Source: Dehalococcoidia bacterium (GTDB lineage Bacteria; Chloroflexota; Dehalococcoidia; Lucifugimonadales; Australimonadaceae). From it: a stretch of DNA of 64,000 bases. Positions 545 to 51,429 of the stretch are shown in pieces. Within the stretch, counting starts at the first letter, position 1; each line of letters opens with the position of its first letter. A program made the position numbers and the translations under genes. The stretch spans positions 1,730,822 to 1,794,821 of the forward strand of contig OZ242210.1 in assembly GCA_965206315.1 (NCBI GenBank), read 5' to 3'. The notes under the pieces are model-generated. The model worked only from the letters and a program-made list of their open reading frames with translations, was not told where the DNA came from and did no database searches.

Positions 545-573
545 GACAGCTCATGCAGACAGGGGGATGCATC

Positions 574-1050
574 ATGCCAAAGTACTATGTGACGTACTCC
601 GCCAAGGGAGCTAGGCATAGGGTTGAGGTCGAGGCTCCGACCAGCACCAAGGCTGTGCGTATCGCGCGAGAGATGGCCCGCGCTGAAGGACTCGGACGTG
701 TGATGCTCAACTTGGTTGAGCAAGAAGACCCTCACCTGCTATCTGACGTTGATCAAGACAAGGTAGACAGAGAGATCGCTGAGCAGTTGGTGGCGACGCG
801 TGGCCGGGCCCTTACGGTGGAGGAGATAAACGTCTCGATATGGGAAATTATTGGCGAGGTACCTCTTCGGGCCGTTGAAAGGGACGGGCACATTCTCTTG
901 GATGACGGCGTGCACGAAACTGCTGATGGGGACGACCTCTCGTGGAACGAACTGTTCATCCTCGTCTACGAATGGGCGGTTTTCACCGGAGAGACCTCTG
1001 AGTCCTTTGAGGGATTCATTGAACTCTACGAGATGCCTATCTGGGAGTAG
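574..1050 (+). CDS. hypothetical acidic protein, no recognised domain
   Basis: ORF 553..1050. ATG at 574 (MPKYYVTYS) has AGGGGGA about 7 nt upstream. It lies 5 nt from the next gene and has island-like lower G+C. Confidence 0.55.
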   Translation: MPKYYVTYSAKGARHRVEVEAPTSTKAVRIAREMARAEGLGRVMLNLVEQEDPHLLSDVDQDKVDREIAEQLVATRGRALTVEEINVSIWEIIGEVPLRAVERDGHILLDDGVHETADGDDLSWNELFILVYEWAVFTGETSESFEGFIELYEMPIWE

Positions 1051-1055
1051 CATCC

Positions 1056-2099
1056 ATGCCTTCTAAACGCTCGACACGCAAATCCAAAGCCGGCACTGCC
1101 GACCTGAAAGAGACAGTGGTGCCGTATGTGGCCTCTCCACCATCTGTGCCTGTCCGCAGCCGGACCCTGGTGACCGGCCTCCGCAAGATGAAGGAGGTCA
1201 CTTGGGTTCACTACACCAAGTTCCTGAAGGACTACGAGACGGTATTGGTTGAAGGCAAGGATATCCGTCTCGAAGGGGGCCGAAGAATCAAAACGTTCGG
1301 ACCGGAGCAGGACGAGGAGCAGCAGACGACGGTCTGGTCGTTTCCCGACCGCGGGCGTTGGGCGACACATAAGGCGAGTTACAGGGGTAACTGGTCGCCG
1401 TGGGTGCCAAGGAACCTGATTCTCAAATACAGCGAACCAGGCGACACGGTGCTTGACCAGATGGTCGGCGGCGGCACAACACTTGTGGAGTGCAAGCTGC
1501 TGGGGCGCCGTGGGATAGGCGTGGACATCAGCCGTAATTCGCTCATGCTTGCCATGGACAGGTTGAACTTTCACCTACCACTCCCCGAGGATGGTGCGCC
1601 TGACGAACTGCCTCCGGAGATAAAGCTGTTTGAGGGAGATGCACGAAGCCTCAATGCGATCCCGTCAGACAGCGTTGACCTGATAGCGACTCACCCGCCG
1701 TATGCCAACATTATCCCGTACTCCAAGGCCGCGCCTATCGAGGGTGATCTGTCGCAGGTGCACACACTCAACGAGTTCTTTGATGGAATGGCAGTGGTCG
1801 CTGCTGAGAGCCTCCGTGTGCTCAAGCCTGGCGGCTACGCAGGCATCCTGATAGGAGATACGCACAAGCACGCACACTATGTCCCAATGGCATATCGCAC
1901 GCTGGAAGCGTTTCTACGGGCGGGGTTCATCCTCAAAGAGGACGTCATCAAACTTCAGCACAACGTGGAGACTGCCCGCACGCGCTGGCGCCCTTGGTTC
2001 CTGACGAACTTCCTCCAGACGATGCATGAGCACCTGTTCATCTTCCGGAAGCTGCGCCCTGAGGAGGATGAACGGAAGTTCGCGGCGAGCAGGTTCTAG
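1056..2099 (+). CDS. DNA amino-methyltransferase (N6-adenine/N4-cytosine class)
   Basis: AdoMet motif VLDQMVGGGTTLVEC precedes the catalytic DLIATHPPYANII (D/S-PPY variant). The HKASYRGNWSP segment resembles the HPxxFP segment of PF01555-type MTases. Confidence 0.8.
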   Translation: MPSKRSTRKSKAGTADLKETVVPYVASPPSVPVRSRTLVTGLRKMKEVTWVHYTKFLKDYETVLVEGKDIRLEGGRRIKTFGPEQDEEQQTTVWSFPDRGRWATHKASYRGNWSPWVPRNLILKYSEPGDTVLDQMVGGGTTLVECKLLGRRGIGVDISRNSLMLAMDRLNFHLPLPEDGAPDELPPEIKLFEGDARSLNAIPSDSVDLIATHPPYANIIPYSKAAPIEGDLSQVHTLNEFFDGMAVVAAESLRVLKPGGYAGILIGDTHKHAHYVPMAYRTLEAFLRAGFILKEDVIKLQHNVETARTRWRPWFLTNFLQTMHEHLFIFRKLRPEEDERKFAASRF

Positions 2100-2140
2100 G
2101 TAGACACGTTGAATGAAGCCCTCTAGAATCGCATGCCGTA

Positions 2141-3172
2141 ATGGCGGAGATTCGAATTATAGACAATGCTAGTCGGCCTGCTGGCGACGAGCTTAGGGAG
2201 AGCTTGGAGTGGGCTTCCCATGTTCGCATTGCAACTGCATTTGCGAAAGGGTCAGGTGTATCTAGGCTTCTTGACTCGTTCAGACGGGTTCTTTCCGACG
2301 GTGGAGAGTTGAGAGTAGTCTACGGCCTAGATTTCCATATTACCGATCCCCAGGCGATTGAACAGTTCAGAAGATTGGCTGATGACTATCCCAGCACGGT
2401 CATCCATCGCGCATACTCAGAGTGGGGTTTGGCCTTAAGTCAAGCATTCCACCCCAAGCTCTACATTTGCACCGGCGCTACAGGGGATGCCCAGGTACTG
2501 ACTGGATCCTCTAACCTGACACAGGGCGGACTGTGGGACAATTTCGAAGTGAACACGGTCATTACCGGGACATCAGACGATCCTGTAATCCTTCACGCAT
2601 ACAGCATTTTTGATCGGGCCTTTACTCATGAACATTGCTTTGTGCCCACCCAAGAATATGTCGATGCGTACAGAGAACTATACAGAAGAGCAGCAGCGGT
2701 TCCGCTTACAGCTAGCCCCCCTGAACGGCTGATGGCAGCTTACGAAGAACTGAAAGGAATCGCGGATAGGCGCACACTCGGTGATTGCCCTAGGCACGCA
2801 GGCCAACAGAATAGCGGGAATAGGGAACACTTAGATGGGCAGATGATGCTGTTGCCTATGAACCAAGCTGGCTTAGGTAGGCATAAGTGCTCGTACTGCG
2901 CGTATGAGCAGGCTTACTGGCAAGCCATAGACGACATACAATCCTCCCTAACTCAAGGCTGGACTACTGATATACCGCGTTCGCAGGACTGGTCTCCAAA
3001 TATTGATTGCCCTAGGCACGCAGGCCAACAGAATAGCGGGAATAGGGAACACTTAGATGGGCAGATGATGCTGTTGCCTATGAACCAAGCTGGGAGAGGC
3101 AGGCACAAATGTCCCTATTGCGCCTACGAGCGTGGCTACTGGCAGGCCATAGACGACCTACGAAACATCTAA
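2141..3172 (+). CDS. PLD-superfamily (single HKD motif) nuclease with duplicated C-terminal Cys/His module
   Basis: HPKLYICTGATGDAQVLTGSSNLTQGG matches HxK(x4)D(x6)GSxN. The C-terminus carries two 74-aa repeats, each CPRH...HKCxYCAYE. Confidence 0.75.
   Translation: MAEIRIIDNASRPAGDELRESLEWASHVRIATAFAKGSGVSRLLDSFRRVLSDGGELRVVYGLDFHITDPQAIEQFRRLADDYPSTVIHRAYSEWGLALSQAFHPKLYICTGATGDAQVLTGSSNLTQGGLWDNFEVNTVITGTSDDPVILHAYSIFDRAFTHEHCFVPTQEYVDAYRELYRRAAAVPLTASPPERLMAAYEELKGIADRRTLGDCPRHAGQQNSGNREHLDGQMMLLPMNQAGLGRHKCSYCAYEQAYWQAIDDIQSSLTQGWTTDIPRSQDWSPNIDCPRHAGQQNSGNREHLDGQMMLLPMNQAGRGRHKCPYCAYERGYWQAIDDLRNI
2783..3160 (+). repeat. intragenic tandem duplication, period 222 nt (74 codons)
   Basis: 2783-2871 and 3005-3093 are identical over about 89 nt. 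The remaining ~65 nt of each unit diverge while keeping CxYCAYExxYWQAIDD. Confidence 0.85.
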
Positions 3173-8862: not shown

Positions 8863-8880
8863 GGGAGATTAGTGTAACGG

Positions 8881-9107
8881 TTTGCGCTGCAATGTGTCGC
8901 TTCCACTCGTGGATGGGCCCTGCTCCGGGCAACGAATGGGTGGCGGTGCGCAGCGACCCAGGCGACAGAATGCAGCGGCGATGCAGCAGAATGCGACACT
9001 TTGCGACAGGGGGGCCGCTGGGGATGGGGGGGGCTGCGCCCACCGGCCGCTGTCCGTCGGGGACAGCGTACGCGCCCCAGCCGCGACCGCGAAAGGGCCG
9101 CGTGTCA
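8881..9107 (+). repeat. 227-bp direct repeat, copy 1
   Basis: Near-identical to 9355-9579 apart from a few substitutions and a 2-nt indel. It ends with CGTACGCGCCCCAGCCGCGACCGCGAAAGGGCCGCGTGTCA, related to the ~130-bp repeat family. Confidence 0.9.
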
Positions 9108-9130
9108 CAACGCCTCCGGCGTCCCTGCCC

Positions 9131-9180
9131 CCTTCCGTCATTCCCGCCCCCTTCCGTCATTCCCGCGAAGGCGGGAATCC
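9131..9180. repeat. REP-like type 1 hairpin (one truncated plus one full copy)
   Basis: CCTTCCGTCATTCCCGC followed by CCTTCCGTCATTCCCGCGAAGGCGGGAATCC. Confidence 0.8.
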
Positions 9181-9270
9181 AGAGGCGCGGCCGGGCATGG
9201 TGGCCTGGTGTAGGGGCGTCCCTTGTGGGCGCCCAGGGTACCCACGAGAGGTACCCCTACATCCGAACGC

Positions 9271-9345
9271 CTCCTCCCCCTCGCCCCTTGGGAGGAGTGT
9301 GCCGCCCCTGCGGGCCGGGGGTGAGGGTGTCCCCCCTCCCCCTCG
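9271..9345. repeat. REP-like type 3 variant hairpins
   Basis: CCTCCTCCCCCTCGCCCCTTGGGAGGAG...GGGGGTGAGGGTG resembles the type 3 elements at 6292, 9977, 28975 and 45361. Confidence 0.6.
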
Positions 9346-9354
9346 GATTTCCGT

Positions 9355-9579
9355 TTTGCGCTGCAATGTGTCGCTTTCACTCGTGGATGGGCCCTGCTCC
9401 GGGCAACGAATGGGTGGCGGTGCGCAGCGACCCAGGCGACAGAATGCAGCGGCGATGCAGCAGAATGCGACACTTTGCGACAGGGGGGCCGCTGGGGATG
9501 GAGGGGCTGCCCCACCGGCCGCTGTCCGTCGGGGACAGCGTACGCGCCCCAGCCGCGACCGCGAAAGGGCCGCGTGTCA
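9355..9579 (+). repeat. 227-bp direct repeat, copy 2
   Basis: See 8881-9107; offset about 474 bp. Confidence 0.9.
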
Positions 9580-9607
9580 GTAGGGTGGGGTGGGGGAGAC
9601 GTGGGGA

Positions 9608-9898
9608 CTACGCGCTTCGGGGCGCGACCGGCAACTCGCTCACCGCTGCGCCGGTGAACTGCTCCGCTGTGGCGAGATCGAACTGCGCCTGGAGGTTCAT
9701 CCAGAACTGCGGTTCGACTCCGAACCAGTGGCCGAGGCGGAGGGCGGTGTCGCCCGTTATCGAGCGCTTGCCGGCGATGATCTGGCTGATGCGGTTGGGC
9801 GGCACGTTGATTGAGCGTGCGAGCGCGGTCGGGCTGACGCCCAACTCGTCGAGCTCGTCCCTGAGGACTTCGCCTGGGTGCACAGCGCGCCTGAACAT
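9608..9898 (-). CDS. higA: HigA-family antitoxin (XRE-type HTH)
   Basis: HPGEVLRDELDELGVSPTALARSINVPPNRISQIIAGKRSITGDTALRLGHWFGVEPQFWMNLQ is the canonical HigA/VapI pattern. No adjacent higB-like ORF. Confidence 0.85.
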   Translation of the reverse strand: MFRRAVHPGEVLRDELDELGVSPTALARSINVPPNRISQIIAGKRSITGDTALRLGHWFGVEPQFWMNLQAQFDLATAEQFTGAAVSELPVAPRSA

Positions 9899-9940
9899 GC
9901 CGTCACCTCCTCACCTAATGGTAGTCCACGATCTCACCCC

Positions 9941-10043
9941 CGTCATTCCTGCGAAGGCAGGAACCCCGCATCCATGTCCCCTCGCCCCCTGGGAGAGGGA
10001 AGCCGCGCAGCGGCGGGTGAGGGTTGTCCGGCGGGTGAGGGTT
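9941..10043. repeat. REP-like type 1 plus type 3 hairpins
   Basis: CGTCATTCCTGCGAAGGCAGGAAC followed by CCCCTCGCCCCCTGGGAGAGGG...GGCGGGTGAGGG (x2). Confidence 0.8.
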
Positions 10044-10962: not shown

Positions 10963-11073
10963 ACCGCTATTGTACGAGGTGGGAGGGGCGCTCGCTCCTG
11001 CGGAGGCGGGACTTCGCAGCCCGTTGTCATGCTAAGGGCAGTCGAGGCATCCTCCAATTAGACCCCCTTTGTC

Positions 11074-12873
11074 GTGATAGCATGGTTCGCTATGGCTGAC
11101 GGGTCAACAAAGCAGGCAAGTGGTCGACCTCCCAACGCCACCCTTGAGGTGCACGAGATCCAGGCGGATGACTTTGCACGTCGATTCTCGTTGCGAGGGA
11201 GGAATCTCATGTGGTTGCTCGGTGCAGGCGCATCAGCCTCGGCTGGAGTTCCGACTGCTCAAGACATGGTTTGGGATTTCAAGCAACAACTATTCATTAG
11301 TCAACGGAGAATATCGCCAAGCACAGTCGCAGACCTGTCCAATCAGTCCGTCCGTCAGCAGCTGCAGGCGCACATTGACTCTCTCGGAAGGCTGCCTTTG
11401 CTTGGTTCTACCGATGAGTACGCGGCGCTGTTCGAGGAGGTGTACCCAGCCGAGGCAGACCGTAGAGCGTATTTGAATGCCAAGGTGGCGGGTTCAAAGC
11501 CGTCCTACGGGCACCTCGCCCTTGCCACGCTGATGCGGGCCAGCCTGGTTCCAGTTGTGTGGACTACTAATTTTGATGCACTTGTTGCCGACGCATGTGC
11601 CAAGGTATACGACACCACTGGCGCCTTGACACTCGCAGACCTCGATTCGCCCGACTTGGCAAAGCAGGCCATTCATGACGAGCGATGGCCAGTGGAAGTC
11701 AAACTGCACGGAGACTTTAGGTCGCGGAGGCTCAAGAACACTACGGATGAGCTTCGCTATCAAGACGTGAGACTGAGGAACACACTCGTTGATTCGTGTC
11801 GAAGGTTTGGGTTGATCGTGGTGGGATATAGCGGACGTGATGACTCCATTATGGATACCCTCTCCGAGGCTGTGCGTTCCCCCGATGCTTTCCCTAGCGG
11901 GTTGTTTTGGCTGCATCGCGGCGATGGGCCTCCTGTACCTAGAGTCATGGACTTATTGGCCCAAGCAACCAGTTCGGGCATTGAAGCGGGATTGGTACGA
12001 ATCGCGAATTTCGATGAAGCACTACGTGACTTGGTTCGTCTACTTGAAGACTTAGACACGACCACTCTGGATTCCTTGGCCAAGGAACGCCGTCCTTGGA
12101 GCAGTGCACCGATACCAAGCGGTCGACTTGGCTGGCCTGTTGTGCGTCTCAACGCCCTCAATGTGGTTCAGGTACCGAGTGTATGCCGGCGGGTGGTTTG
12201 TGAGATCGGAGGAACAGCTGCAGTGCGTGAGGCGGCAACTAAAGCTGGAGTCGAGATACTCGCAGTACGTTCGGTGACTGGGGTGCTGGCCTTTGGATCA
12301 GATTCGGACATGCGCGCGGCATTTGGGCCTTATGACATTTCTGAGTACGACATCTACACTCTGGACCCGAAGAAGCAGAGGCACGATTCAACTGAGCGAG
12401 GCCTACTGCGCGAGGCTCTCACACGGGCTATTTCGCGCTATCGTAGCCTCAGCGCAACTCATCGGCGCAGGGCGGACTTGCTTGTGCCGTGTGACCCTAC
12501 AGATCAAGCCTGGCTGCCCTTGAAACAGCTGGTGGGCGAACTTGATGGAACAGTTAATCGCCAGCCGGAATTGCGATGGCAAGAGGGCATAAGTATCCGA
12601 TTAGATTGGGCCGACGACCGGCTGTGGTTGCTGTTCGAACCGAGGACGGTGTTCTCCGGCATCAATGCCGAGAACAGGTTGGCAGCAACGGACTTTGCCC
12701 GCGAACGGTCGGTCAAGCGGTACAACAGGCAACTGAATAGCCTCTTGGACTTCTGGTCCAGATGGCTTTCGCAAGAGGGGAGCGCACTCAGAGCACTAGA
12801 CGTCGGCGATGGCATTGATGCTGTCTTCAGCATCTCTCCCATCACGGGCTTCTCACGGAGGGCGGGGGCTTGA
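11074..12873 (+). CDS. SIR2-APAZ protein (SIR2_2-type NADase domain fused to an Argonaute-associated APAZ region)
   Basis: MWLLGAGASASAGVP (nt 11221 onward), WTTNFDALV (Asn), VKLHGDF (His) and VVGYSGRDDSI, followed by ~300 aa non-SIR2 C-terminal region. GTG 11074 or ATG 11092 start. TGA overlaps the start of the pAgo gene. Confidence 0.85.
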   Translation: MIAWFAMADGSTKQASGRPPNATLEVHEIQADDFARRFSLRGRNLMWLLGAGASASAGVPTAQDMVWDFKQQLFISQRRISPSTVADLSNQSVRQQLQAHIDSLGRLPLLGSTDEYAALFEEVYPAEADRRAYLNAKVAGSKPSYGHLALATLMRASLVPVVWTTNFDALVADACAKVYDTTGALTLADLDSPDLAKQAIHDERWPVEVKLHGDFRSRRLKNTTDELRYQDVRLRNTLVDSCRRFGLIVVGYSGRDDSIMDTLSEAVRSPDAFPSGLFWLHRGDGPPVPRVMDLLAQATSSGIEAGLVRIANFDEALRDLVRLLEDLDTTTLDSLAKERRPWSSAPIPSGRLGWPVVRLNALNVVQVPSVCRRVVCEIGGTAAVREAATKAGVEILAVRSVTGVLAFGSDSDMRAAFGPYDISEYDIYTLDPKKQRHDSTERGLLREALTRAISRYRSLSATHRRRADLLVPCDPTDQAWLPLKQLVGELDGTVNRQPELRWQEGISIRLDWADDRLWLLFEPRTVFSGINAENRLAATDFARERSVKRYNRQLNSLLDFWSRWLSQEGSALRALDVGDGIDAVFSISPITGFSRRAGA

Positions 12874-14291
12874 CAAGTCAGATTGCTCCACACATATGGC
12901 TACCTGAACCGCAACTGGCATTCCATGCCGACCGCACGTCCGATCGCGACATCCACCCTCTGCGCGGCCTTCAGAAGTTCGGTCCTTACTCAGCCGGGAT
13001 GGTGCCTGATCCAATCAGGGTAGCTACCTTGTCACCGGCAGGAGAAGGTGGCCAACTTCACACTTTTCTGAAGAGCCTAAACTCGGCGCACATCCCTAAA
13101 GAGCGCAGAGACTATCTCCCGGAATGGCAGGGTTTTCGGCCTGTTTTTGGCCTCCAAATTACAGCAGCGGAGGAGAGTTGCCATATAGAACTAGACTCGT
13201 CCGTGGATGCTGACATGCGAGCTTCACTGAATCCTCACGTTGTGCTCGCAGACCGGTTAGTCAGGGCTATTCAGCGTGTGCAGGCACTCCGTCCCAAGTT
13301 CGATGTGCTTCTGATTTACTTACCCGGGCGTTGGACTCCAGGCTACACCGGTGGCCCCGACGAAGATTTCGACCTCCATGATCATCTGAAGGCTACTACG
13401 GCAGCCCTTGGATTGCCGGTTCAGCTGGTACGAGAAGACAGTGCCTTAGCCTACAACTGCCAAGCCAGTGTCATGTGGCGCTTGGGTATGGCCCTGTACA
13501 CCAAGGCTGGCGGCATCCCATGGAAACTGGCGGAGACTAACCCTGATACAGCGTATATCGGCATCTCCTACGCTTTGCGCTCAATCGCATCAGAAAGCCC
13601 ACGGTTCATTACTTGTTGCAGCCAAGTCTTCGATGCTGATGGTTCGGGCTTGGAATTTGTTGCGTATGATGCTCACGAGTTCGAAGTCCATCAAGATAAC
13701 CCGTTTTTGTCCCGTGCTGAGATGTTTCGCGTGATGACTCGTTCAATGGAACTCTACAGACGGCGTCATGCCGGAATGTCGCCTCGACGAGTTGTGGTAC
13801 ACAAATCCACGGAATTTAAGCCAGAAGAAGTCGATGGTTGCATGGAGGCCCTACACTTGTGTGAAGCCGTTGACTTGGTACAAGTTGTTGAAGACGTGGG
13901 GTGGCGCGGCGTACGGATTGACGAGAATCCAGGCTCCACTAGGGGCAACCCTGCTGCATTTCCAGTTTCGCGTGGAACGGCCATGGGCCTTTCACCACGC
14001 GATGTCCTGGTATGGACACATGGAGATGTAAGGGGTGTCAGCAGCAGAGGTTCCTACTTCAAAGGAGCCCGAAGCACTCCGACTCCCCTCCGGCTGGTGC
14101 GCCACGCCGGCCATGGGCCGTGGGACGACAACGTCCGCGCGATCTTGGGGCTCAGCAAGATGAACTGGAACAACGATTCCCTATACGACACGTTGCCCGT
14201 CACTATGGCCTATGCGAAGGTGCTGGCCCGCGTAGTCAAGCGCATGCCCAGCCTCACGCGCACGCCGTATCAGTTCAGATTCTTCATGTAG
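12870..14291 (+). CDS. short prokaryotic Argonaute (MID-PIWI only, catalytic tetrad absent)
   Basis: 473 aa. MID-like DLHDHLKATTAALGLPVQLV and PIWI signature LYTKAGGIPWKL. YIGISYA and RVVVHKST sit where active Agos carry catalytic Asp. No N/PAZ length. TTG start overlaps the upstream TGA (cTTGA). Confidence 0.85.
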   Translation: MTSQIAPHIWLPEPQLAFHADRTSDRDIHPLRGLQKFGPYSAGMVPDPIRVATLSPAGEGGQLHTFLKSLNSAHIPKERRDYLPEWQGFRPVFGLQITAAEESCHIELDSSVDADMRASLNPHVVLADRLVRAIQRVQALRPKFDVLLIYLPGRWTPGYTGGPDEDFDLHDHLKATTAALGLPVQLVREDSALAYNCQASVMWRLGMALYTKAGGIPWKLAETNPDTAYIGISYALRSIASESPRFITCCSQVFDADGSGLEFVAYDAHEFEVHQDNPFLSRAEMFRVMTRSMELYRRRHAGMSPRRVVVHKSTEFKPEEVDGCMEALHLCEAVDLVQVVEDVGWRGVRIDENPGSTRGNPAAFPVSRGTAMGLSPRDVLVWTHGDVRGVSSRGSYFKGARSTPTPLRLVRHAGHGPWDDNVRAILGLSKMNWNNDSLYDTLPVTMAYAKVLARVVKRMPSLTRTPYQFRFFM

Positions 14292-14334
14292 GAATCGCAG
14301 CTGGCTACCGAGCGACGACCGCTAACCCGCCAAA

Positions 14335-14433
14335 CCACTGACACCCGCCCCTATCGAGGTCGACCCCTCCCTGCGTACGCTGGTTGCATAACAGTCGTAC
14401 GCGCCCCTGCCGTGAGCGCGAAAGGGGACTGAG
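14335..14433. repeat. copy A of the ~130-bp repeat family (partial, arranged as an imperfect inverted pair)
   Basis: CCACTGACACCCGCCCCTATCGAGGTCGACCCCTCCCTGCGTACGCTGGTTGCATAACAGTCG matches 16544-16606. It is followed by CGTACGCGCCCC...GCGCGAAAGGGGACTGAG in the opposite sense. Confidence 0.8.
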
Positions 14434-14649
14434 GAGGTGGATCGTTGACGACTCAGCTTGAGGTTGCAGCCGAGGCTTGCAATGCCCTGAAGCCCGGCGT
14501 TAGCATCACCGCACTAGATCAGCAGCCGTACGTTGCAGGAGGAAGACATCGTAATGCCACAGCGTGCGGGAGCACAGGGCTTGCCGTGGAGCGGTTGAAA
14601 CATCGTGACTTGGCCGCTGCCTTCCCCGCGCTGCCGGAGGCGGTGAGCC

Positions 14650-15951
14650 ATGTCGGCTGATACCTTCCGGGACCCGGCATTCTCGGCGAACCGGGATGAA
14701 CCTGTACACCGGTGGGTTCCTTGGATCGCGGGGTTCTCAAGACAATTCATCCAAGACGCGCTCAACTCATACACCAACGGCCACTCTCAGGCTGTGTTGG
14801 ACCCCTTCGCTGGTGTAGCCACGACCTTGATAGAGGCCGATCTTGCTGGTCATGACGCTGTAGGCTTCGAGATTAACCCTTACGCTGCTTTCGCTGCCCA
14901 ACTCAAGCTGAGCGCCCACCGCCTGTCCGTGGAGGACTTGCGCTCCGTTGTCATCGACCTTTATGAGCACGCTCTGACCGTGGAAACCAACGGAGTGATG
15001 CCCATGTCTGTGCCACCCCCAGGATTCCGCACACGGTTGCCCTTCTACAGCCCGGAGGTAGAGCGCAAGGTACTGCTTATGCTGGACTTCGCCAGCCGTC
15101 AGTCCGACGACCAGGCGGCGGACCTGCTCAAGCTGGCTTTCGCATCGACGATGGTGGAGTATTCCAACTACTCGTACGAACCGAGCCTCGGGACGCGGAA
15201 CGCGGCTGGCCGGGCTGGCGTAGATGATTTCCCGGTAGCCCTGCGAATCGCCCGCAAGCTCACTCAAATGGCCACTGACGCGAAGTGGTATCGTGAGCAC
15301 CGCGAGCGAGCGCAGCGCGATGATGGACAGGTTCACCTTCAATCCTTCTTCGACGGATACGAACTGATTGGGCGGCAGAGCATCGATTTGATCGTGACCT
15401 CACCGCCCTACGCGAACAACTACCACTACAATCGCAATACTCGCCCGCACCTATACTGGCTTGGCTTCTGTAAATCGCCGGATGACATGAAGAGTCTTGA
15501 AGAACAGAACTTCGGCACCTACTGGCAGCGAGCGCGGGAGTTGGAGTGTGTAGAACTGAACCCCATCATCGCTGGCAGGGGCATTAGGGAGACCTTGGCT
15601 CAGATACGTCGACAGAATCCTGACCGTGGAATCTATGGTGGTCAAGGGTGGGCCAACTATGTCACCACGTACCTGAACGATTGCGTTCGGTTCATGGACG
15701 GGGTGAAGTGGTGCCTCCGTCCTGGCGGTACTGCCCTTGTGGTTATTGGGAACAGTATCGTGCAGGGTGTTCATGTACCCACTGACAGGTACTTAGCTGA
15801 GATTGCTGCTCAACATGACCTTGAAGTGGTAGAGATTCACACACCACGTCCCACCCGCGTTGGCAATAGCATAACGAACTCTAGTGTCCGTCGGGGCACT
15901 GCCGGACATACTAAGCTTTATGAGTCGGTGGTAGAGTTGAGACAGCCATGA
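14650..15951 (+). CDS. DNA amino-methyltransferase, alpha-class order (motif I - long variable region - SPPY)
   Basis: VLDPFAGVATTLIEA near the N-terminus and DLIVTSPPYANNYHY about 200 aa later. GGAGG lies ~10 nt upstream. The stop overlaps the start of the nuclease gene. Confidence 0.85.
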   Translation: MSADTFRDPAFSANRDEPVHRWVPWIAGFSRQFIQDALNSYTNGHSQAVLDPFAGVATTLIEADLAGHDAVGFEINPYAAFAAQLKLSAHRLSVEDLRSVVIDLYEHALTVETNGVMPMSVPPPGFRTRLPFYSPEVERKVLLMLDFASRQSDDQAADLLKLAFASTMVEYSNYSYEPSLGTRNAAGRAGVDDFPVALRIARKLTQMATDAKWYREHRERAQRDDGQVHLQSFFDGYELIGRQSIDLIVTSPPYANNYHYNRNTRPHLYWLGFCKSPDDMKSLEEQNFGTYWQRARELECVELNPIIAGRGIRETLAQIRRQNPDRGIYGGQGWANYVTTYLNDCVRFMDGVKWCLRPGGTALVVIGNSIVQGVHVPTDRYLAEIAAQHDLEVVEIHTPRPTRVGNSITNSSVRRGTAGHTKLYESVVELRQP

Positions 15952-16547
15952 GCGAGCTTTACGATCCACTCACCTGGCAGAACCTCATGGCAGGGCTCGT
16001 TGTTCGCTTCGAGCAACAGCCCCGCGTTAGTTTCGCAGAGATCGGCAACGCGGAAGGACCGGGAGTGTACGCGTTGTTCTACGTGGGAGGACATGCGGCA
16101 TACTCTCCGATCTCCGGCACGCTGCAGCCCATTTACGTAGGGAAGGCAGTTCCCGAAGGCACACGGAAGGGGAGCTTAGAAGGAGCGGGACAACACGCCC
16201 TAAGAGGGAGGCTGCGCAATCACCGACGATCCATTGACGCGGCCGTGAATCTTGAAACGGACGATTTCCTGTGCCGCTTCCTGGCAGTCGTTCCCGTGTG
16301 GATAACGCTGGCAGAGCGGTTCCTGATAGACCATTACCGTCCGATCTGGAACACGGGGATAGATGGATTCGGCAACAACCCGCAAGGCAGAAACCGAGTG
16401 ACCGGGGACAAGAGCTGGTGGGACACGCTGCACCCTGGCCGTGAATGGGCAATCAAGCGCACACCGAAGGGCACCGAGGGGGAGGCGCTGGCTTTGGTCG
16501 CTCAGTTCTTCAGCGAGGGAGACGAGGCCTCTCCCTCCCTCAACTGA
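15948..16547 (+). CDS. Eco29kI-family GIY-YIG restriction endonuclease
   Basis: GPGVYALFYVGG...PIYVGKAVPEG (GIY-YIG core), RLRNHRRSI, and YRPIWNTGIDGFGNNPQGRNR...WWDTLHPGREWA as recalled for the RE_Eco29kI family. ATGA overlap with the MTase gene. Confidence 0.75.
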   Translation: MSELYDPLTWQNLMAGLVVRFEQQPRVSFAEIGNAEGPGVYALFYVGGHAAYSPISGTLQPIYVGKAVPEGTRKGSLEGAGQHALRGRLRNHRRSIDAAVNLETDDFLCRFLAVVPVWITLAERFLIDHYRPIWNTGIDGFGNNPQGRNRVTGDKSWWDTLHPGREWAIKRTPKGTEGEALALVAQFFSEGDEASPSLN

Positions 16548-16676
16548 CACGCGCCCCTTTCGAGGTCGACCCCTCCCCCCGTACGCTGGTTGCATGACCG
16601 TCGACCGTGCACGACCTATAGACAGAGCCTATAGCTCGGGGCCCAGCCATAGATATGGTCTATGGGTCCGGCGCGC
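16544..16676 (-). repeat. copy B of the ~130-bp repeat family (full length, reverse orientation relative to copies C/D)
   Basis: CTGACACGCGCCCCTTTCGAGGTCGAC...CGTACGCTGGTTGCATGACCGTCG...CCTATAGAC...GTCTATGGG. It starts on the nuclease stop codon. Confidence 0.85.
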
Positions 16677-16701
16677 AAATTTTGAATTCGATGGCCATCT
16701 T

Positions 16702-16769
16702 GAGATTCTTGATGCTTCAGGGCCCGGGAAGCAGGCCACGGCCATGGAAACGCGCCGATCAAGAATCTC
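16702..16769. repeat. 12-bp perfect inverted repeat GAGATTCTTGAT / ATCAAGAATCTC separated by 44 nt
   Basis: 16702-16713 and 16758-16769. Related GATCAAGAG / CCTTGATC motifs follow at about 16811 and 16845. Confidence 0.6.
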
Positions 16770-16863
16770 AAGGGTGCCAAACGAAGTCGACCGTTTACTC
16801 GTAGACCGAGGATCAAGAGTGCCAGAATTCGGGGGCGTTGGCATCCTTGATCGGGGGCTGCGA

Positions 16864-16884
16864 GGTTCCTGCCTCCGCAGGAAC
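16864..16884. repeat. REP-like type 1 hairpin
   Basis: GGTTCCTGCCTCCGCAGGAAC. Confidence 0.7.
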
Positions 16885-16893
16885 GACGAGGTC

Positions 16894-18543
16894 CTAGAGG
16901 ACGGCCATCATGTGGTGCTGGACGCGGTTGGCGCGCTGCACCCCCATCTTCATCACCTGCCGCGCCGGGCGGTCGTCACGATCAGGGAAGATCTCGTCCC
17001 ACGCCGCGTCTATCGCCGGCAGGTCGGCGTAGTCCTGGATGAGCAGCTGGATGAGGCCCACGTTGTCCATCGTGCCGCCGCCCGACTCCAGCAGCGACCG
17101 GATGTTGCGGATGCCGTGGTGCGCCTGCCCCTCGATGCCCGGCACCGGCTCCAGCTTGTCCGGCCCCGCCGTGTCGACGCCGGAGACGCCGCCCGAGCAG
17201 AAGAGGTCGCCGATGCGCGCACCCATCGGGATGGGGTCGTGGTGCCCGTGCCCCTCTATCTCGTGGTTCGTCCGCTCGCCGCCTATCCTGCCGATCACCT
17301 GCAGCTGGATCTGCCCGCCCATGGGGTAGCGGTACGTCTTGCGCGCCGCCTGGTACTGGCCGATCGGCCACGCCTCCAGGTACACGTCCACCATGTACGG
17401 CTGGTACGCGAAGTCGTTCAGGTACACCCACTGCAGCACCACGTCGTCCACCGTCCCGCCCGCGTGCTCCATGAACACCCGCATGTTGTCGAAGCACTGG
17501 TCGGTCTGCGCGTCCTCCCCGATGACCGGCAGCGAGGTCGACAGGTCCCATGGCACGATGACGGACGAGAAGACGTAGTCGCCCAGCCGCGCGCCGTTCG
17601 GGAGCGGGTCGCGGTGCGTCAGCCCGGCGACCTCGATGCACTGCCGCTGCTGTCCGGCAACGCCTATCGCCTGCAGCTCGACGCCCTCGCCGGGCGGCAA
17701 GGGGTAGGACGTCGTCTTGCGCGCGGGGCGGTTGTCCGCGTCCGGGAACAGCTCCAGCCAGCCGGTGTTGATGTGCGGCCGGAAGTCCTGGCTGTCGATG
17801 AAGTTCGTGACGATGCCGATGTTGTCGGTCGAGTGCCCGGCGGACTCGACGAGCGTGCGCAGGTTGCGCCACGCGTTCAGGAACTGCTCCGCGGGGTCGT
17901 CGGGCATGATGCCGGTCTCGAGGTCGATGCCGCGCACGCCCGAGGTGAAGAAGAGGCCGCCGACCTCCACGAGGTCTGGCACAGGCGCGTCCGGCGCGCT
18001 GAGACCGGGCAGCCGCGTCGTCGTGCGCTTGTTCGGCCTGCCGGGCGCGCCCTTGTCGCTCAGCGCGGGGCCGGGCGCGCTGCGGAACTTCGGTCGAATC
18101 GCGGCGTTCGCCAGCCGGGCGTCGCCCGCGGGCTTGACCATCGCCTCGGCGCCCGCGAGCGCGAGCCGCTCGTCGCGGTCCTCGTCGCCGGTGCCGCTCA
18201 CGCCGATGCCGCCGATGACCTCGCTCGCCCGGTGCAGCGTCAGCCCGCCGTGCAGCGTCGTCACGCCGTCGTTCGACCAGTCGGCGACGGTGCGGCCGTC
18301 GTGCGATATCTGCTGCCGGTAGATGAGCGTGTCGCGCCCGATGAAGGCGGCGGTGTACGCCTTGCGCTCGGCGTTCCGCACGTCGGTCCCGGACGCGCCG
18401 TCGCGCCGGACCTTGTAGACGAGCGCGCCGCTCTCGTCGACGACGGCGACCGCGAACGGGCGCTCGGTCGGGCGCGCGGCGGCCATCGCCGCGTCCACGG
18501 CGCGTTCGGCGTCTTCCAGGCTGATCGTCTCTTTCGCGGGCAT
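16894..18543 (-). CDS. four-domain fusion: GlcG/HbpS-like (DUF336) domain plus three RidA/YjgF-like domains
   Basis: N-terminus PFAVAVVDESGALV...GGIGVSGTGDEDRDERLA (DUF336). Then three units of the type FFTSGVRGID...AEQFLNAWRNLRTLVESAG, DYVFSS...QCFDNMRVFMEHAGG, and LFCSGGVSG...HGIRNIRSLLESGGG. Confidence 0.7.
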   Translation of the reverse strand: MPAKETISLEDAERAVDAAMAAARPTERPFAVAVVDESGALVYKVRRDGASGTDVRNAERKAYTAAFIGRDTLIYRQQISHDGRTVADWSNDGVTTLHGGLTLHRASEVIGGIGVSGTGDEDRDERLALAGAEAMVKPAGDARLANAAIRPKFRSAPGPALSDKGAPGRPNKRTTTRLPGLSAPDAPVPDLVEVGGLFFTSGVRGIDLETGIMPDDPAEQFLNAWRNLRTLVESAGHSTDNIGIVTNFIDSQDFRPHINTGWLELFPDADNRPARKTTSYPLPPGEGVELQAIGVAGQQRQCIEVAGLTHRDPLPNGARLGDYVFSSVIVPWDLSTSLPVIGEDAQTDQCFDNMRVFMEHAGGTVDDVVLQWVYLNDFAYQPYMVDVYLEAWPIGQYQAARKTYRYPMGGQIQLQVIGRIGGERTNHEIEGHGHHDPIPMGARIGDLFCSGGVSGVDTAGPDKLEPVPGIEGQAHHGIRNIRSLLESGGGTMDNVGLIQLLIQDYADLPAIDAAWDEIFPDRDDRPARQVMKMGVQRANRVQHHMMAVL

Positions 18544-26431: not shown

Positions 26432-27253
26432 ATGGACCGCACAGCCCACATCGCGCAGCGCATCGTTGGCGCGCGCATATTCGAGTACGCCATCATCGCG
26501 CTCATCCTCGCGAGCGGCGCGCTGCTCGGACTCGCCACCTCACCCGACATCGTCGACCGCTACGGCGACGCCATCGAGATGGGCAACCGGGTCATCCTCG
26601 GCGTGTTCATCGTGGAGGCGGCGCTCAAGATGCTGGCGCTCGCCCCGACTTCCCAGCGCTACTTCCGCGACGGCTGGAACGTCTTCGACTTCGCCATCAT
26701 CGTCTTCGCGCTCGTGCCGGCGACCGGCTCGTTCGCCATGGTCGCGCGGCTCGGACGGCTGCTGCGCGTGCTGCGCCTCATCTCCGCGATCAAGGAGCTG
26801 CGGCTCATCGTCGGCGCGCTCGTGCGCTCCATCCCCAGCGTCGCCAACATCATGATGCTGATGAGCATCGTCGTGTACATCTACGCCATCGTCGGTTACC
26901 ACCTCTTCCACGAGGCCGACCCCACCCACTGGCGCACTCTCGGCATATCGCTGCTGTCGCTCTTCCGCGTCATCACGCTGGAGGACTGGACGGACATCAT
27001 GTACGCGGCGATGGAGCACCACGGGCTCGCGTGGCTCTACTTCCTCAGCTTCGTGGTGGGCGGCACGTTCGTCGTGGCGAACCTCTTCATCGCGGTCGTC
27101 ATCAACAACCTGGACAAGGCGAAGGTCGACCAGCTGATGACACTGGAGTCGCCGCCCTCGCGCGAGGAACTCCTGCGCGAGCTCCGCACGACGCAGGAGA
27201 CACTCCGCCGCCTGGAGGAGCGCCTCGGCGGATACGGCGGGGAGGGGCGGTAG
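26432..27253 (+). CDS. bacterial voltage-gated cation channel (BacNaV/NaChBac family, single 6-TM domain)
   Basis: S4 RLGRLLRVLRLISAIKELR (Arg every third residue), pore FRVITLEDWTDIMY, and C-terminal coiled coil SREELLRELRTTQETLRRLEERL. Confidence 0.85.
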   Translation: MDRTAHIAQRIVGARIFEYAIIALILASGALLGLATSPDIVDRYGDAIEMGNRVILGVFIVEAALKMLALAPTSQRYFRDGWNVFDFAIIVFALVPATGSFAMVARLGRLLRVLRLISAIKELRLIVGALVRSIPSVANIMMLMSIVVYIYAIVGYHLFHEADPTHWRTLGISLLSLFRVITLEDWTDIMYAAMEHHGLAWLYFLSFVVGGTFVVANLFIAVVINNLDKAKVDQLMTLESPPSREELLRELRTTQETLRRLEERLGGYGGEGR

Positions 27254-27275
27254 GCTTCCTCCGTCAATCCGCCTC

Positions 27276-27305
27276 CTTCCGTCATTCCAGCGGAGGCTGG
27301 AATCC
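27276..27305. repeat. REP-like type 1 hairpin
   Basis: CCTTCCGTCATTCCAGCGGAGGCTGGAATCC. Confidence 0.8.
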
Positions 27306-27314
27306 AGCGGCCCT

Positions 27315-27465
27315 GAACAAGGTGGCCAACCGGCCCGAAATCTGGCCACCTTGTTACCGGCGTTACGAGTAAACCAGGCGCTCCATTTGGCCACCTTGGC
27401 CACCTTGTGTTGCTCTGCGCAAGGCCACGACCTGGTTTCCGCAACAAGTGAACAAGGTGGCCAAC
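27315..27465. repeat. cluster of four copies of the 13-mer AACAAGGTGGCCA (two direct, two inverted) plus AAACCAGG/CCTGGTTT inverted repeat
   Basis: GAACAAGGTGGCCAAC at 27315 and 27450. TGGCCACCTTGTT at 27343 and within 27387-27412. AAACCAGG at 27371 and CCTGGTTT at about 27431. Confidence 0.7.
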
Positions 27466-27483
27466 GAATTTCACAAGTTGGGC

Positions 27484-27615
27484 GGCGGACCTATAGACCA
27501 GATCTATGGCTCAGCCCCGGGCTATAGACGCGGTCTATGGCTGCTGTCCGCACGACGGTCATGCAACCAGCGTACGCAATCGCGCGGCGACCGCGAAAGG
27601 GGCGCGTGTCAGTGG
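27484..27615 (+). repeat. copy C of the ~130-bp repeat family
   Basis: GGACCTATAGACC...GGCTATAGACGCGGTCTATGG...CGACGGTCATGCAACCAGCGTACGC...GACCGCGAAAGGGGCGCGTGTCAGTGG. Confidence 0.85.
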
Positions 27616-27806
27616 AATCCACGGAAGCACTACTCGGCATGAGGGTCAACGCGAATGCCCTACACACTCGAAGGGAACCCTCTTTTCAAGAATGTCATAT
27701 AAACGTAATCTATATTGATTGGAATGTTACCCCATTGTCACTCTCAGGGGAGTATAGTTGTTTACAGGCTGATAGCTTCCGCATCCAATCCACGAGGGAG
27801 AGACTG

Positions 27807-28166
27807 ATGGCATTTGACTTCAACTTCTACGATGACGCGCCAAGAGCCCGGCCACGATTCTCCAAGGCTGACAAGGAGCCCTTCTACAAGGCGCAGGGCG
27901 GGAAGTGCGCGATTTGCAGGCGGAGCCTCCCCATTGATCTCCTGCAGGTAGATCACAAACGGGCGTTCTCCAAGGGTGGGAGCAACAAACCGGGCAACCT
28001 GCAGCTACTCTGCGCCACGTGCAACGGCAAGAAGGGCGACCGCTCCCCCAAGCAGGCCGCAAAGATACTCTCCAAGACAAAGTCGCCCCCAAAGACGAAG
28101 AAGCCCGCCAAGATAACCACCGCCAAGAAGCGCACGACCACGAAGCGCAGTGGCACGAGGAGATAA
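27807..28166 (+). CDS. HNH endonuclease with Lys-rich basic tail
   Basis: GGKCAICRRSLPIDLLQVDHKRAFSKGGSNKPGNLQLLCATCNGKKG (CxxC...H...N...CxxC). Tail is KTKSPPKTKKPAKITTAKKRTTTKR. GAGGGAG lies upstream of ATG 27807. Low G+C. Confidence 0.85.
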   Translation: MAFDFNFYDDAPRARPRFSKADKEPFYKAQGGKCAICRRSLPIDLLQVDHKRAFSKGGSNKPGNLQLLCATCNGKKGDRSPKQAAKILSKTKSPPKTKKPAKITTAKKRTTTKRSGTRR

Positions 28167-28459
28167 CTGACGGAGACGCATTCCTCTGTCCGGCTAACCG
28201 GCTGTTGCATCGTTATGCAGACCATGCACTCCAAGGACGGTATCAAGCTCGAATCCAGATCGGCTATATCCACATGGCTTGGGGATAGCCTCATGGTCTG
28301 AAATCGATGTCTCAGTTGGGGAAGCGATGGTGGGCGGTATGGTCGGCAGTGAAGTCCTCGTGTGGATGCTCCTCTCTGGTAGGAGCTAGCCGACGAAACA
28401 CACATCCGAGAGGAGATCCACGTCAGAGTGGACTCCGCGCTTGAGGGAGATGAGTAGCC

Positions 28460-28741
28460 ATGACCACCGGAGAAGAACGTGAGTCGATCCACCAGAAACT
28501 GGACCGCGTACTGAGCATCCTGAACAACGAGGCGCTGACAGTGGAGGGCGCGACAAAGATGGATGCCGGGGAGGTGGTCCGTGCACTGCTTGAACAGGAT
28601 CCATCGCTCACTCGGGATGATCTTATTGACCGTATACCTATGGGTTGCTACTGGGAGTGGTTCGACGCGGATGCCATGTTCAAGATCCGGGGCAGCGTCT
28701 CGAATCTAAGGACCCACCATCTGAAGCAGCTGGAAGGATAA
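28460..28741 (+). CDS. hypothetical small protein
   Basis: 93 aa, low-G+C patch, GGGAGATGAG upstream of the ATG; no recognisable motif. Confidence 0.45.
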   Translation: MTTGEERESIHQKLDRVLSILNNEALTVEGATKMDAGEVVRALLEQDPSLTRDDLIDRIPMGCYWEWFDADAMFKIRGSVSNLRTHHLKQLEG

Positions 28742-28842
28742 CCGCCGCGTAACCCCGCGCAATCTTGTCTAGGCTGTTCGTAGAGTGTGTGGCAGGAACA
28801 GCCGCGCCCACCATCCCCACCGCGTGCACTGCCCGTGCACCT

Positions 28843-43780: not shown

Positions 43781-43907
43781 GCCATAGACCCCATCGATAG
43801 CCTGGTGGCCGGGCCACAAGCGCGGTCTACGGGTGCAATCAGTGCGACGGTCATGCAACCAGCGTACGGGGCCAGAGTGCGACCGCGAAAGGGGCGGGTG
43901 TCAGTGG
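43781..43907 (+). repeat. copy D of the ~130-bp repeat family
   Basis: GCCATAGACC...GCGGTCTACGG...CGACGGTCATGCAACCAGCGTACGG...GACCGCGAAAGGGGCGGGTGTCAGTGG. It abuts the stop of the next gene. Confidence 0.85.
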
Positions 43908-51414: not shown

Positions 51415-51429
51415 TGCTATAGTCATCCC

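Follow-up and report, generated by a model that had tools for sequence, protein, structure and literature searches.

Results

A split SPARSA operon of clade S1B

The two-gene pair at positions 11074-14291 of the window (the whole stretch of 64,000 nucleotides that we analyzed) is very probably a SPARSA (Sir2/Ago) system of clade S1B, with a predicted function in abortive infection. A first-pass annotation of this DNA had proposed a SPARSA-type two-gene system. The identification is correct but ordinary: the pairing of a short, non-cutting Argonaute (pAgo) with an NAD-destroying SIR2 enzyme is an already well-studied type, and the family, whose relatives in databases number in the thousands, already has solved structures and its own detection models. 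Both proteins match dedicated PADLOC models for Class I short-pAgo systems end to end, and the E-values across the evidence for the pair, from 1e-73 to 1e-196, are far beyond chance. The ORF coordinates, the lengths (599 and 473 aa) and all of the motifs quoted in the annotation were present on reading the sequence. The features of the locus are as follows.

11074-12873, plus strand: SIR2-APAZ effector gene, 599 aa from GTG 11074 (PADLOC and PDB 8in8_B matches)
11164-12063, plus strand: predicted SIR2 NADase domain, residues ~31-330 (Pfam SIR2_2, GsSir2 alignment)
11221-11235, 11569-11571, 11707-11709 and 11839-11841, plus strand: SIR2 sites, respectively the GAGAS NAD loop, Asn166, His212 and Asp256
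12064-12870, plus strand: linker and APAZ domain, residues 331-599 (alignment to GsSir2 318-548)
12857-12873, plus strand: coupling junction, with Shine-Dalgarno GGAGGG at 12857-12862 followed by TTGA at 12870-12873 (sequence read)
12870-14291, plus strand: short prokaryotic Argonaute gene, catalytically dead by sequence, 473 aa from TTG, MID and PIWI only
13371-13469, plus strand: predicted MID pocket for the guide 5' end, with D168, H170, K174 and Q185 conserved (residue mapping, 79 relatives)
13566-14219, plus strand: degenerate PIWI active site and sensor loop (hhalign against PDB-verified TtAgo)
11016-16855, no strand: low-G+C island, acquired horizontally, that contains the SPARSA operon and a type II restriction-modification (R-M) pair (composition)

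The relatives that we compared came from 80 related genomic loci in at least 15 phyla, 78 of them entering the counts of upstream genes and overlaps; the residue counts for the pAgo cover 79 relatives. SIR2-APAZ stood immediately upstream of pAgo in 78/78 loci, the 4-nt NTGA overlap of the two genes was kept in 74 of the 78, and no third gene was conserved, since no family among 2577 clustered flanking ORFs occurred in more than 7/80 loci. These three properties place the pair in clade S1B, the split-operon architecture as defined by Koopal et al. 2022 (PMC9097488). The missing third gene agrees with the account in the same paper. As the definition has it, the two genes are separate and co-oriented in one operon, in contrast to the S1A fusions; the pAgo has no domains besides MID and PIWI, its PIWI lacks the DEDX tetrad and its MID pocket has the residues to bind a 5'-phosphate, and the partner carries both SIR2 and APAZ. 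Within the subclade the amino-acid identity is 62-82% across at least 15 phyla, which indicates strong purifying selection.

The SIR2-APAZ protein

The upstream protein covers positions 1-557 of the 558 in the PADLOC model Aga_SIR2-PNTD1-PNTD2 (E 1.1e-188), and GsSir2 of Geobacter sulfurreducens (Gs; PDB 8in8_B) aligns with its residues 32-566 at E 1.2e-73. The motifs LLGAGASASAGVP, WTTNFD, VKLHGDF and VVGYSGRDDS start at residues 48, 163, 209 and 249, respectively. A SIR2_2-type N-terminal domain had been read from these motifs, and the profile search that the first-pass annotation recommended bears it out: Pfam SIR2_2 was found at E 1.1e-13, with 51.9 bits against a curated cutoff of 24.5. 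Searched without the rest of the protein, the SIR2 half aligns with GsSir2 7-300 (E 5.5e-53). Gs N142, H186 and D230, all three essential in the Geobacter enzyme (PMC10781750; bioRxiv 10.1101/2021.12.14.472599), are matched here by N166, H212 and D256, which do not vary among 70-71 relatives. The rest of the NAD pocket (G50, Y116, F120, T165, F167, D168, G213 and D214) is also the same as in Gs, with no variation among 70 relatives.

The SIR2 fold serves several kinds of chemistry, and the protein has a weak similarity to CobB-type deacylases, far below cutoffs (NCBIfam E 7e-4 to 6e-3). An output other than bulk NAD+ hydrolysis, be it protein deacylation, ADP-ribosylation or a signalling nucleotide, is nevertheless extremely unlikely. 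Each residue of the NAD pocket has an identical counterpart in the Gs NADase, the product of the Gs enzyme is ADPR, and no gene that might act as a signal sensor is conserved next to the pair. NAD+ hydrolysis is the predicted activity of the domain.

The sequence behind the SIR2 domain had been assigned to APAZ by its position. Residues 331-599 (~270 aa), searched alone, match GsSir2 318-548 at E 2.8e-14, which makes this region an APAZ homologue in its own right; the APAZ domain of Gs spans residues 332-583 (PMC10781750). The start of the protein is uncertain among GTG 11074, ATG 11092 and GTG 11149 (start-site analysis, 71 relatives). The internal ATG 11209 (MWLLGAG, preceded by GAGGGAGG) was excluded as a start because conservation in the family sets in already at about residue 25-30; all relatives keep the DDFARRFSLR block, which lies upstream of this ATG, in their protein sequence.

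The short Argonaute

The downstream protein matches the PADLOC model pAgo_I at E 7e-196 (model positions 2-457 of 457), and GsAgo (PDB 8in8_C) aligns with its residues 3-473 at E 1e-115. Its 473 aa equal the median of a family that spans 467-478 aa. In hhalign comparisons it covered TtAgo 406-662 only, leaving no N or PAZ region, as expected of the short Argonaute that had been proposed. The motifs HDHLK, PVQLV, LYTKAGGIPWKL, YIGISYA and VVVHKST start at residues 170, 183, 209, 229 and 308.

The MID pocket retains the residues that hold the guide 5'-phosphate, in keeping with the 5'-end pocket proposed earlier: H170, K174 and Q185 are the counterparts of Gs H166, K170 and Q181. The metal ligands of Gs are matched by N434 and by the C-terminal M473 of the ...RFFM end. 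All five residues are conserved in 78-79/79 relatives.

The slicer site is lost. The positions of TtAgo D478, D546 and D660 are taken by S233 (13566-13568), S313 (13806-13808) and K450 (14217-14219), so that Ser replaces both of the catalytic Asp residues whose loss the first-pass annotation had read from the motifs. Position 233 is Ser in 79/79 relatives, position 313 is Thr, Ser or Asn, and position 450 is mostly Lys. E272 aligns with TtAgo E512, but this loop is of low confidence and the column is variable. The absence of an N/PAZ region and the replacement of both catalytic Asp residues rule out a long, catalytically active pAgo. Overall, the profile searches returned SIR2 and PIWI/MID hits, and the alignment held neither a PAZ domain nor an intact DEDX tetrad. 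The sensor loop (residues 264-285, 13659-13724) has its tip residues N277 and F279 conserved; the role of this loop in Gs is described in PMC11452484.

The gene junction and expression signals

The two genes meet in the sequence GCT TGA / TTG ACA and have the TTGA of 12870-12873 in common. The TGA stop of SIR2-APAZ lies at 12871-12873, and the pAgo begins in a different frame at TTG 12870. This stop/start overlap implies translational coupling, which is distinct from strict co-translation; of the earlier reading, the overlap stands and co-translation in the strict sense does not. TTG is a legitimate start codon in bacteria. As the pAgo start it is used by 0/78 relatives (ATG in 58, GTG in 18), and the expression of the pAgo could be lower for this reason. 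There was no clear Shine-Dalgarno sequence before GTG 11074. A scan limited to a sigma-70-type consensus, and powerless in a high-GC lineage, found no sigma-70-like promoter upstream of the operon; the terminator scan, itself uninformative, identified no terminator for it. ARAGORN and Rfam detected no RNA genes on the island.

A horizontally acquired island

The operon lies on an island (11016-16855) with a G+C content of 0.57, compared to 0.67 in the remaining window, and host hairpin repeats are found at both of its edges (10996-11011 and 16867-16882). GC3 is 0.58 in the operon and 0.58-0.69 over the island, against 0.91-0.96 in the flanking host genes, which are metabolic. This difference in GC3 argues that the operon was acquired recently by horizontal transfer. 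The adjacent R-M pair consists of an N6_N4 methylase (14650-15951) and an Eco29kI-family endonuclease (15948-16547), and the earlier description of a lower-G+C island beside an R-M system was thus accurate. The Eco29kI-type pair was considered as a functional partner of SPARSA and rejected: it is adjacent in 0/80 related loci, and we regard it as an independent neighbour. The 68-nt direct repeats around the R-M module do not qualify as att sites of a cassette, with more copies at 27453-27613 and 43845-43908; the 68-nt repeat is a dispersed host repeat. A 71-aa ORF (14445-14660), with a strong GAGGAGG Shine-Dalgarno in front of it, gave no Pfam or PADLOC hit and no tblastn match in the 80 related loci. 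Its fusion to the methylase did not lengthen the alignment to the methylase model. The ORF was rejected both as the N-terminus of the methylase, split off by a frameshift, and as a controller protein, and is left unassigned.

The unameliorated composition of the operon invites the reading that it is a silent or decaying passenger, recently acquired and, in this host, either inactive or expressed at a low level. The TTG start without precedent in the relatives, the ambiguous SIR2-APAZ start with no clear ribosome-binding sequence at 11074 and the empty promoter scan would fit such a reading. Decay does occur in the family, as the SIR2-APAZ gene is disrupted in 4/78 related loci. We consider the passenger reading improbable nonetheless. 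Both ORFs are full length, the catalytic and binding residues are all intact, and the TTG, legitimate as a start, has a good GGAGGG Shine-Dalgarno before it. The promoter scan moreover covers sigma-70-type sites alone and is powerless in such a lineage. The first-pass annotation had called the pair intact, and the lengths at the family medians and the presence of every key residue support an intact operon; that it is also functional, as the annotation proposed, is a prediction from homology.

Discussion

Proposed mechanism

From the strict co-occurrence of the two genes, their coupling and the Gs structures, we infer that the two proteins form a heterodimer. The guide type, oligomerization, NADase activity and defence phenotype of the pair are likewise drawn by analogy in what follows. 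One transcript would give both proteins, with the stop/start overlap coupling their translation, and SIR2-APAZ and the short pAgo would pair 1:1 in a heterodimer with no activity in the resting state. The MID pocket of the pAgo may anchor a small guide by its 5'-phosphate; by analogy, this guide would be an RNA that stems from transcripts of the invader. Once the guide pairs with complementary single-stranded DNA of the invader, the PIWI sensor loop would be displaced and oligomerization would follow. Oligomerization would in turn reposition the catalytic loop of SIR2, where His212 and Asn166 are predicted to support the hydrolysis of NAD+ to ADP-ribose and nicotinamide. The depletion of NAD+ would then arrest or kill the infected cell.

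Significance of the locus

The analysis provides correct names for two genes that are usually annotated as "hypothetical protein", "SIR2 family protein" or, misleadingly, "nuclease PIN". These are the labels that we encountered in plasmids and MAGs, in accord with the earlier remark that such genes are commonly called hypothetical. It also indicates that the host recently gained a predicted abortive-infection module beside an R-M system. The value for the field is incremental, the locus being one example of a very widespread and uncharacterized S1B subclade; it opens no new question and overturns nothing.

Comparison with known systems

GsSPARSA (the GsSir2/Ago of G. sulfurreducens; PDB 8in8, 8jkz, 8jl0, 8k87, 8k88 and 8y7z-8y82) is the sole structurally characterized system. 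The demonstration of guide- and target-dependent NAD+ hydrolysis, and of defence against plasmids or phages, is confined to the Gs, Cc and Pg systems. The window pair has the same two-gene operon as GsSPARSA, in which SIR2-APAZ precedes a MID-PIWI pAgo of 473 aa, and the proteins align from end to end. The SIR2 NAD pocket with its N/H/D residues, the H/K/Q of the 5'-phosphate site, the metal ligand N434 and the C-terminal Met are common to both, as are a sensor loop with an N-x-aromatic tip and a Ser at the position of the first slicer Asp. The identity is modest by contrast, ~42% for the pAgo and ~31% for SIR2-APAZ, and the window pair falls into a different subclade, which is very abundant and has its own best-scoring PADLOC models.

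The differences at the guide-reading residues, whose roles in Gs are described in PMC10781750 and PMC11452484, are of note. The base readers Gs N184, R190 and N195 are replaced in the window by E189, Y195 and S200, which are nearly invariant in the 79 relatives, and the 2'-OH readers Gs Y240 and H310 by F246 and E315. The third 2'-OH reader, Gs K396, is matched by K398 in the window, yet this column holds Gln in 69/79 relatives. [quoted passage not shown] The residues of the window protein thus failed to match Gs-like guide specificity (5'-AU RNA guides), which leaves its membership in SPARSA unaffected. With the base and 2'-OH readers replaced and the tetramer contacts not conserved, the guide chemistry, the sequence preference and the exact oligomer of Gs are not transferable to this pair.

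These replacements raise the possibility of a functionally distinct subclade within the same SPARSA architecture, one that reads another guide 5' end or chemistry (for example, DNA) or assembles into an oligomer other than the Geobacter tetramer. In Gs, the NADase activity is abolished by N184A and by the R190A/N195A double mutation (PMC10781750). As other residues are fixed at these positions throughout the subclade, the pattern points to a different solution and not to drift, and the differences at the 5'-AU and 2'-OH readers suggest that the guide preference may differ. Conversely, the contact to A1 (D168) and the aromatic residue at Gs F158 (Y159 in the window) are conserved, as are the 5'-phosphate pocket, the metal site and the sensor loop. 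Hydrogen-bonding residues at interfaces often co-vary with the assembly unchanged, and specificity is not predictable from sequence alone. On balance, we hold a distinct function to be possible but rather unlikely. Were the guide-end reader or the interface indeed different, the system could have another range of invaders and offer a new specificity for SPARSA-based tools of nucleic-acid detection. The consistent departure from Geobacter at the guide-reading and oligomer-interface residues is a good reason to choose a member of the subclade for the next biochemical study.

SPARTA (clade S2A, TIR-APAZ with a short pAgo) has in common with the window pair an APAZ-fused NADase effector and a dead short pAgo, and, by a logic inferred from homology, the guide-dependent sensing of DNA and the depletion of NAD(P)+. 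The SPARTA pAgo is homologous to that of the window (PDB 8ifk and 8fex, E 1e-19 to 1e-22), but the similarity is much weaker, and the effector is SIR2 here, whereas it is TIR in SPARTA. The fused S1A SPARSA proteins (PgSir2-Ago, JomSPARSA) have the same three modules in identical order, and the window proteins match the corresponding halves of the fused S1A models of PADLOC (~1010-1030 aa) at E 8e-78 and 7e-109. The window differs from S1A in having the modules on two polypeptides, with the stop codon of the one overlapping the start of the next. In the S1B SPARSA systems (SPARSA-B; XavSPARSA, CcSir2/Ago), compared here by definition only, separate genes encode SIR2-APAZ and a short pAgo without the DEDX tetrad, no other gene is specifically associated, and by this definition the window operon shows no difference from them.

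The operon and its low-G+C island

The first-pass annotation had described a SIR2-APAZ gene followed by a short pAgo gene; both reading frames are as described, and its quoted peptide motifs (9/9) were found at the expected places. The two genes lie, as had also been noted, where the G+C content drops from about 0.70 to 0.50-0.60 (roughly 11000-16900).

~11016-16855: island, between ordinary metabolic genes
11074-12873, plus strand: ORF1 (SIR2-APAZ), 599 aa, GTG start
12857-12862, plus strand: GGAGGG, Shine-Dalgarno of ORF2, seven bases 5' of its TTG
12870-14291, plus strand: ORF2 (short pAgo), 473 aa, TTG start
14650-16547: type II R-M pair, methylase (433 aa, N6_N4 type, PF01555) and endonuclease (199 aa)

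At the junction, the first frame ends ...GGG GCT TGA and the second begins TTG ACA AGT; the four bases TTGA (12870-12873) are thus common to the end of ORF1 and the start of ORF2. The GC3 of ORF1 and ORF2 is 0.585 and 0.580, compared to 0.91-0.96 in the flanking host genes. To the left of the island are biotin carboxylase/BCCP, an HTH protein and an NmrA-like reductase, and to the right are HbpS-like/RidA and Amdase-like genes. The window is chromosomal, carrying uvrA and relA/spoT, and no integrase or transposase is adjacent to the island.

The R-M system reported next to the pair was identified as an N6_N4 methylase and an endonuclease of the Eco29kI family (PF09517, E 1.9e-47), whose genes overlap by 4 nt (ATGA, 15948-15951). 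A 71-aa ORF (14445-14660, TTG start) with a strong GAGGAGG Shine-Dalgarno 5' of it stops 11 nt inside the methylase gene and is read in a different frame. Neither Pfam nor PADLOC matched it, and the related loci lack a homologue; it was considered as an N-terminal part of the methylase, and its fusion to that protein left the model match unextended. It could be a small R-M regulator, or spurious.

The SIR2-APAZ protein

The SIR2_2-type domain claimed for ORF1 is significant in Pfam (E 1.1e-13; 51.9 bits, cutoff 24.5). The PADLOC model Aga_SIR2-PNTD1-PNTD2 matched ORF1 over model positions 1-557 of 558 (E 1.1e-188), and query residues 32-566 aligned to the Sir2-APAZ chain (8in8_B, E 1.2e-73) of GsSPARSA, the structurally characterised system of Geobacter sulfurreducens (Gs). 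The N-terminal 330 aa alone matched GsSir2 7-300 (E 5.5e-53), and the C-terminal 269 aa alone matched GsSir2 318-548 (E 2.8e-14), the region delimited as the APAZ domain in PMC10781750; the APAZ region placed after SIR2 is thereby borne out. The Gs sequences were rebuilt from printed alignments, their lengths check out, and the experimentally defined residues were then mapped. In GsSir2, N142 and H186 are required for NADase activity (PMC10781750), and NAD+ binding, defence and NAD+ depletion are all lost in D230A (bioRxiv 10.1101/2021.12.14.472599). Their window counterparts are N166, H212 and D256, which, together with the remaining residues of the NAD pocket, are invariant in 70-71 relatives.

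The short pAgo and its slicer site

The Pfam Piwi match of ORF2 was sub-threshold (25.9 bits vs 28.9). PADLOC pAgo_I (Class I) matched it over positions 2-457 of 457 (E 7e-196), and query residues 3-473 aligned to residues 6-473 of the Gs Ago chain (8in8_C, E 1e-115). Each protein also matched the corresponding half of the PADLOC fused SIR2-APAZ-pAgo models. At the level of sequence, these dedicated defence models are decisive for the identity of both proteins. The 5'-phosphate ligands H166, K170 and Q181 of GsAgo are conserved as H170, K174 and Q185; the metal ligands N434 and the C-terminal M473 are the same residues in both pAgos; and the tip of the sensor loop (Gs N272/Y274) is conserved as N277/F279.

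The slicing reference was TtAgo, whose catalytic tetrad we take to be D478, E512, D546 and D660. A PDB entry named 'TtAgo (D546N)' is consistent with D546 as a tetrad residue, and the sequence used is identical to PDB 3dlb_A across all 685 residues. The profile of the window family aligned to TtAgo 406-662 (MID and PIWI) only (probability 92%, E 6.7e-7), placing S233, S313 and K450 opposite D478, D546 and D660. Among 79 relatives, these columns hold S (79/79), T, S or N, and mostly K, respectively. E512 falls opposite E272, in the short-pAgo sensor loop, which is poorly aligned and variable. The assignment of YIGISYA and VVVHKST to catalytic Asp positions is correct, since S233 and S313 lie opposite two of them and the columns agree. 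What had been named as contrary evidence, an intact DEDX with a PAZ domain, was not found: the alignment is confined to TtAgo 406-662 and the Asp positions are replaced.

Relatives and gene neighbourhood

Database relatives of the pAgo number more than 2000 (E <1e-10), with at least 120 cluster representatives at 70% identity or above. When one genome per species was scanned, 80 loci (62-75% identity) were recovered, from Chloroflexota, Planctomycetota, Gemmatimonadota, Acidobacteriota, Nitrospirota, Actinomycetota, Verrucomicrobiota, Poribacteria, Binatia, Latescibacterota, several proteobacterial classes and others. The SIR2-APAZ gene is directly upstream of pAgo in 78/78 loci with upstream DNA, and the 4-nt NTGA overlap is retained in 74 of these; the remaining four have a disrupted SIR2-APAZ. 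In those four (L006, L014, L037, L046) the frame is interrupted or apart from an intact pAgo (gaps of 130-1478 nt), which could reflect natural pseudogenisation or insertion, or else assembly errors. The pAgo starts with ATG in 58 relatives and GTG in 18, and with TTG only in the window.

Each flanking gene family is present in at most 7 of the 80 loci, consistent with the conclusion published in PMC9097488 that the APAZ protein is the sole specific partner. The Eco29kI-type R-M pair occurs in none of the 80 and is therefore an independent neighbour of the operon here. Two plasmids, of 273 kb (Sagittula) and 22 kb (Paracoccaceae), also carry the subclade at 68% identity; no phage record does. 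In the plasmid records the annotations are 'hypothetical protein', 'SIR2 family protein' or 'nuclease PIN', much as the first-pass annotation had anticipated; pipelines leave both products unnamed because NCBIfam has no model for either.

Repeats around the island and other features

6262, 9161, 9947, 10996, 16867 (minus strand), 39272: palindromic hairpin TCCYGCGRAGGCRGGA, mostly at gene ends
14337-14404 and 16543-16610: 68-nt direct repeat, 87% identical, bracketing exactly the R-M module
27453-27613 (minus), 43845-43908 (minus), 9556-9581: further copies of the dispersed repeat

The host hairpin TCCYGCGRAGGCRGGA has six copies in the window (0.04 expected by chance), two of which (10996-11011 and 16867-16882) flank the island in opposite orientation; it probably represents a REP-like or terminator hairpin. 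The stop codon of the endonuclease is provided by the right-hand copy of the 68-nt repeat. The 68-nt repeat is part of a dispersed host repeat, up to about 160 nt long, that also has copies beside a low-GC HNH endonuclease patch. These repeats may be integration hot spots for foreign DNA, or a MITE-like element. Together, the hairpin and 68-nt patterns suggest separate acquisition of the SPARSA and R-M modules at hot spots marked by repeats.

A non-coding element of ~230 nt, with no Rfam match, has two copies (8878-9107 and 9352-9579; 98-100% identical, 472-474 nt apart). Both lie in 1.2 kb of gene-poor sequence (8870-10040) dense in smaller repeats, and part of the element (CGTACGCGCCCC...GAAAGGG) recurs at 14396-14426, just downstream of pAgo. 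The repeat-rich stretch upstream of the island also encodes a solitary 96-aa HTH_3 (Xre/HigA-like) protein (9608-9898, minus), for which no toxin partner is obvious. The HNH endonuclease ORF (27537-28166, 209 aa; low-G+C patch 27000-29000, 0.59-0.60) overlaps at its start the repeat copy at 27453-27613. Another low-G+C patch (553-3172, 0.52-0.58), beside uvrA, holds a 165-aa ORF (no Pfam match), a second N6_N4 DNA methylase (1056-2099) and a PLD-family protein (2141-3172; weak PLDc_2 match), and is probably another R-M-like module. At 51391-52076 lies a VapBC/FitAB-type toxin-antitoxin module (lower GC3, 0.67-0.69), an overlapping pair that encodes a FitA-like ribbon-helix-helix antitoxin (95 aa) and a PIN-domain toxin (133 aa).

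Class, proposed mechanism and comparison with GsSPARSA

Clade S1B SPARSA is defined as an operon of SIR2-APAZ and a short pAgo without DEDX (PMC9097488). Judged by its sequence, the window operon is a clade S1B SPARSA, with every element of that definition present; it is intact, recently acquired and of a well-known kind. The original observation is confirmed, and its SPARSA-type interpretation is supported by the full-length PADLOC and 8in8 matches and by the conserved residues. Beyond architecture and residue conservation, what we say of this locus we infer. Under the mechanism established for GsSPARSA, which we adopt here, SIR2-APAZ and pAgo would form a heterodimer carrying a 5'-P guide RNA. 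Recognition of complementary ssDNA would displace the sensor loop, leading to tetramerisation and alignment of the catalytic His; the SIR2 site would then hydrolyse NAD+ to ADPR and nicotinamide, resulting in abortive infection.

Identity to Gs is only about 42% (pAgo) and 31% (SIR2-APAZ). The readers of the guide 5'-AU in Gs, N184, R190 and N195 (activity is lost in N184A and in the R190A/N195A double mutant), are replaced by E189, Y195 and S200, which are nearly invariant in the subclade. The RNA-guide preference of Gs is explained by the 2'-OH readers K396, Y240 and H310, of which the window retains only the Lys (K398), where most relatives have Gln; the others are F246 and E315. Ten residues of the Gs Sir2-Sir2 interface are likewise not conserved, including Y168 and Q297, mutation of which breaks the Gs tetramer. 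These differences leave the SPARSA membership of the operon unaffected. Yet, because the reader and interface residues differ, the guide specificity and active oligomer known from Gs should not be taken for granted here. We consider a real functional difference between the subclade and GsSPARSA possible, if rather doubtful; the consistent divergence of the subclade at guide-reading and oligomer-interface positions is the sole lead here with some novelty.
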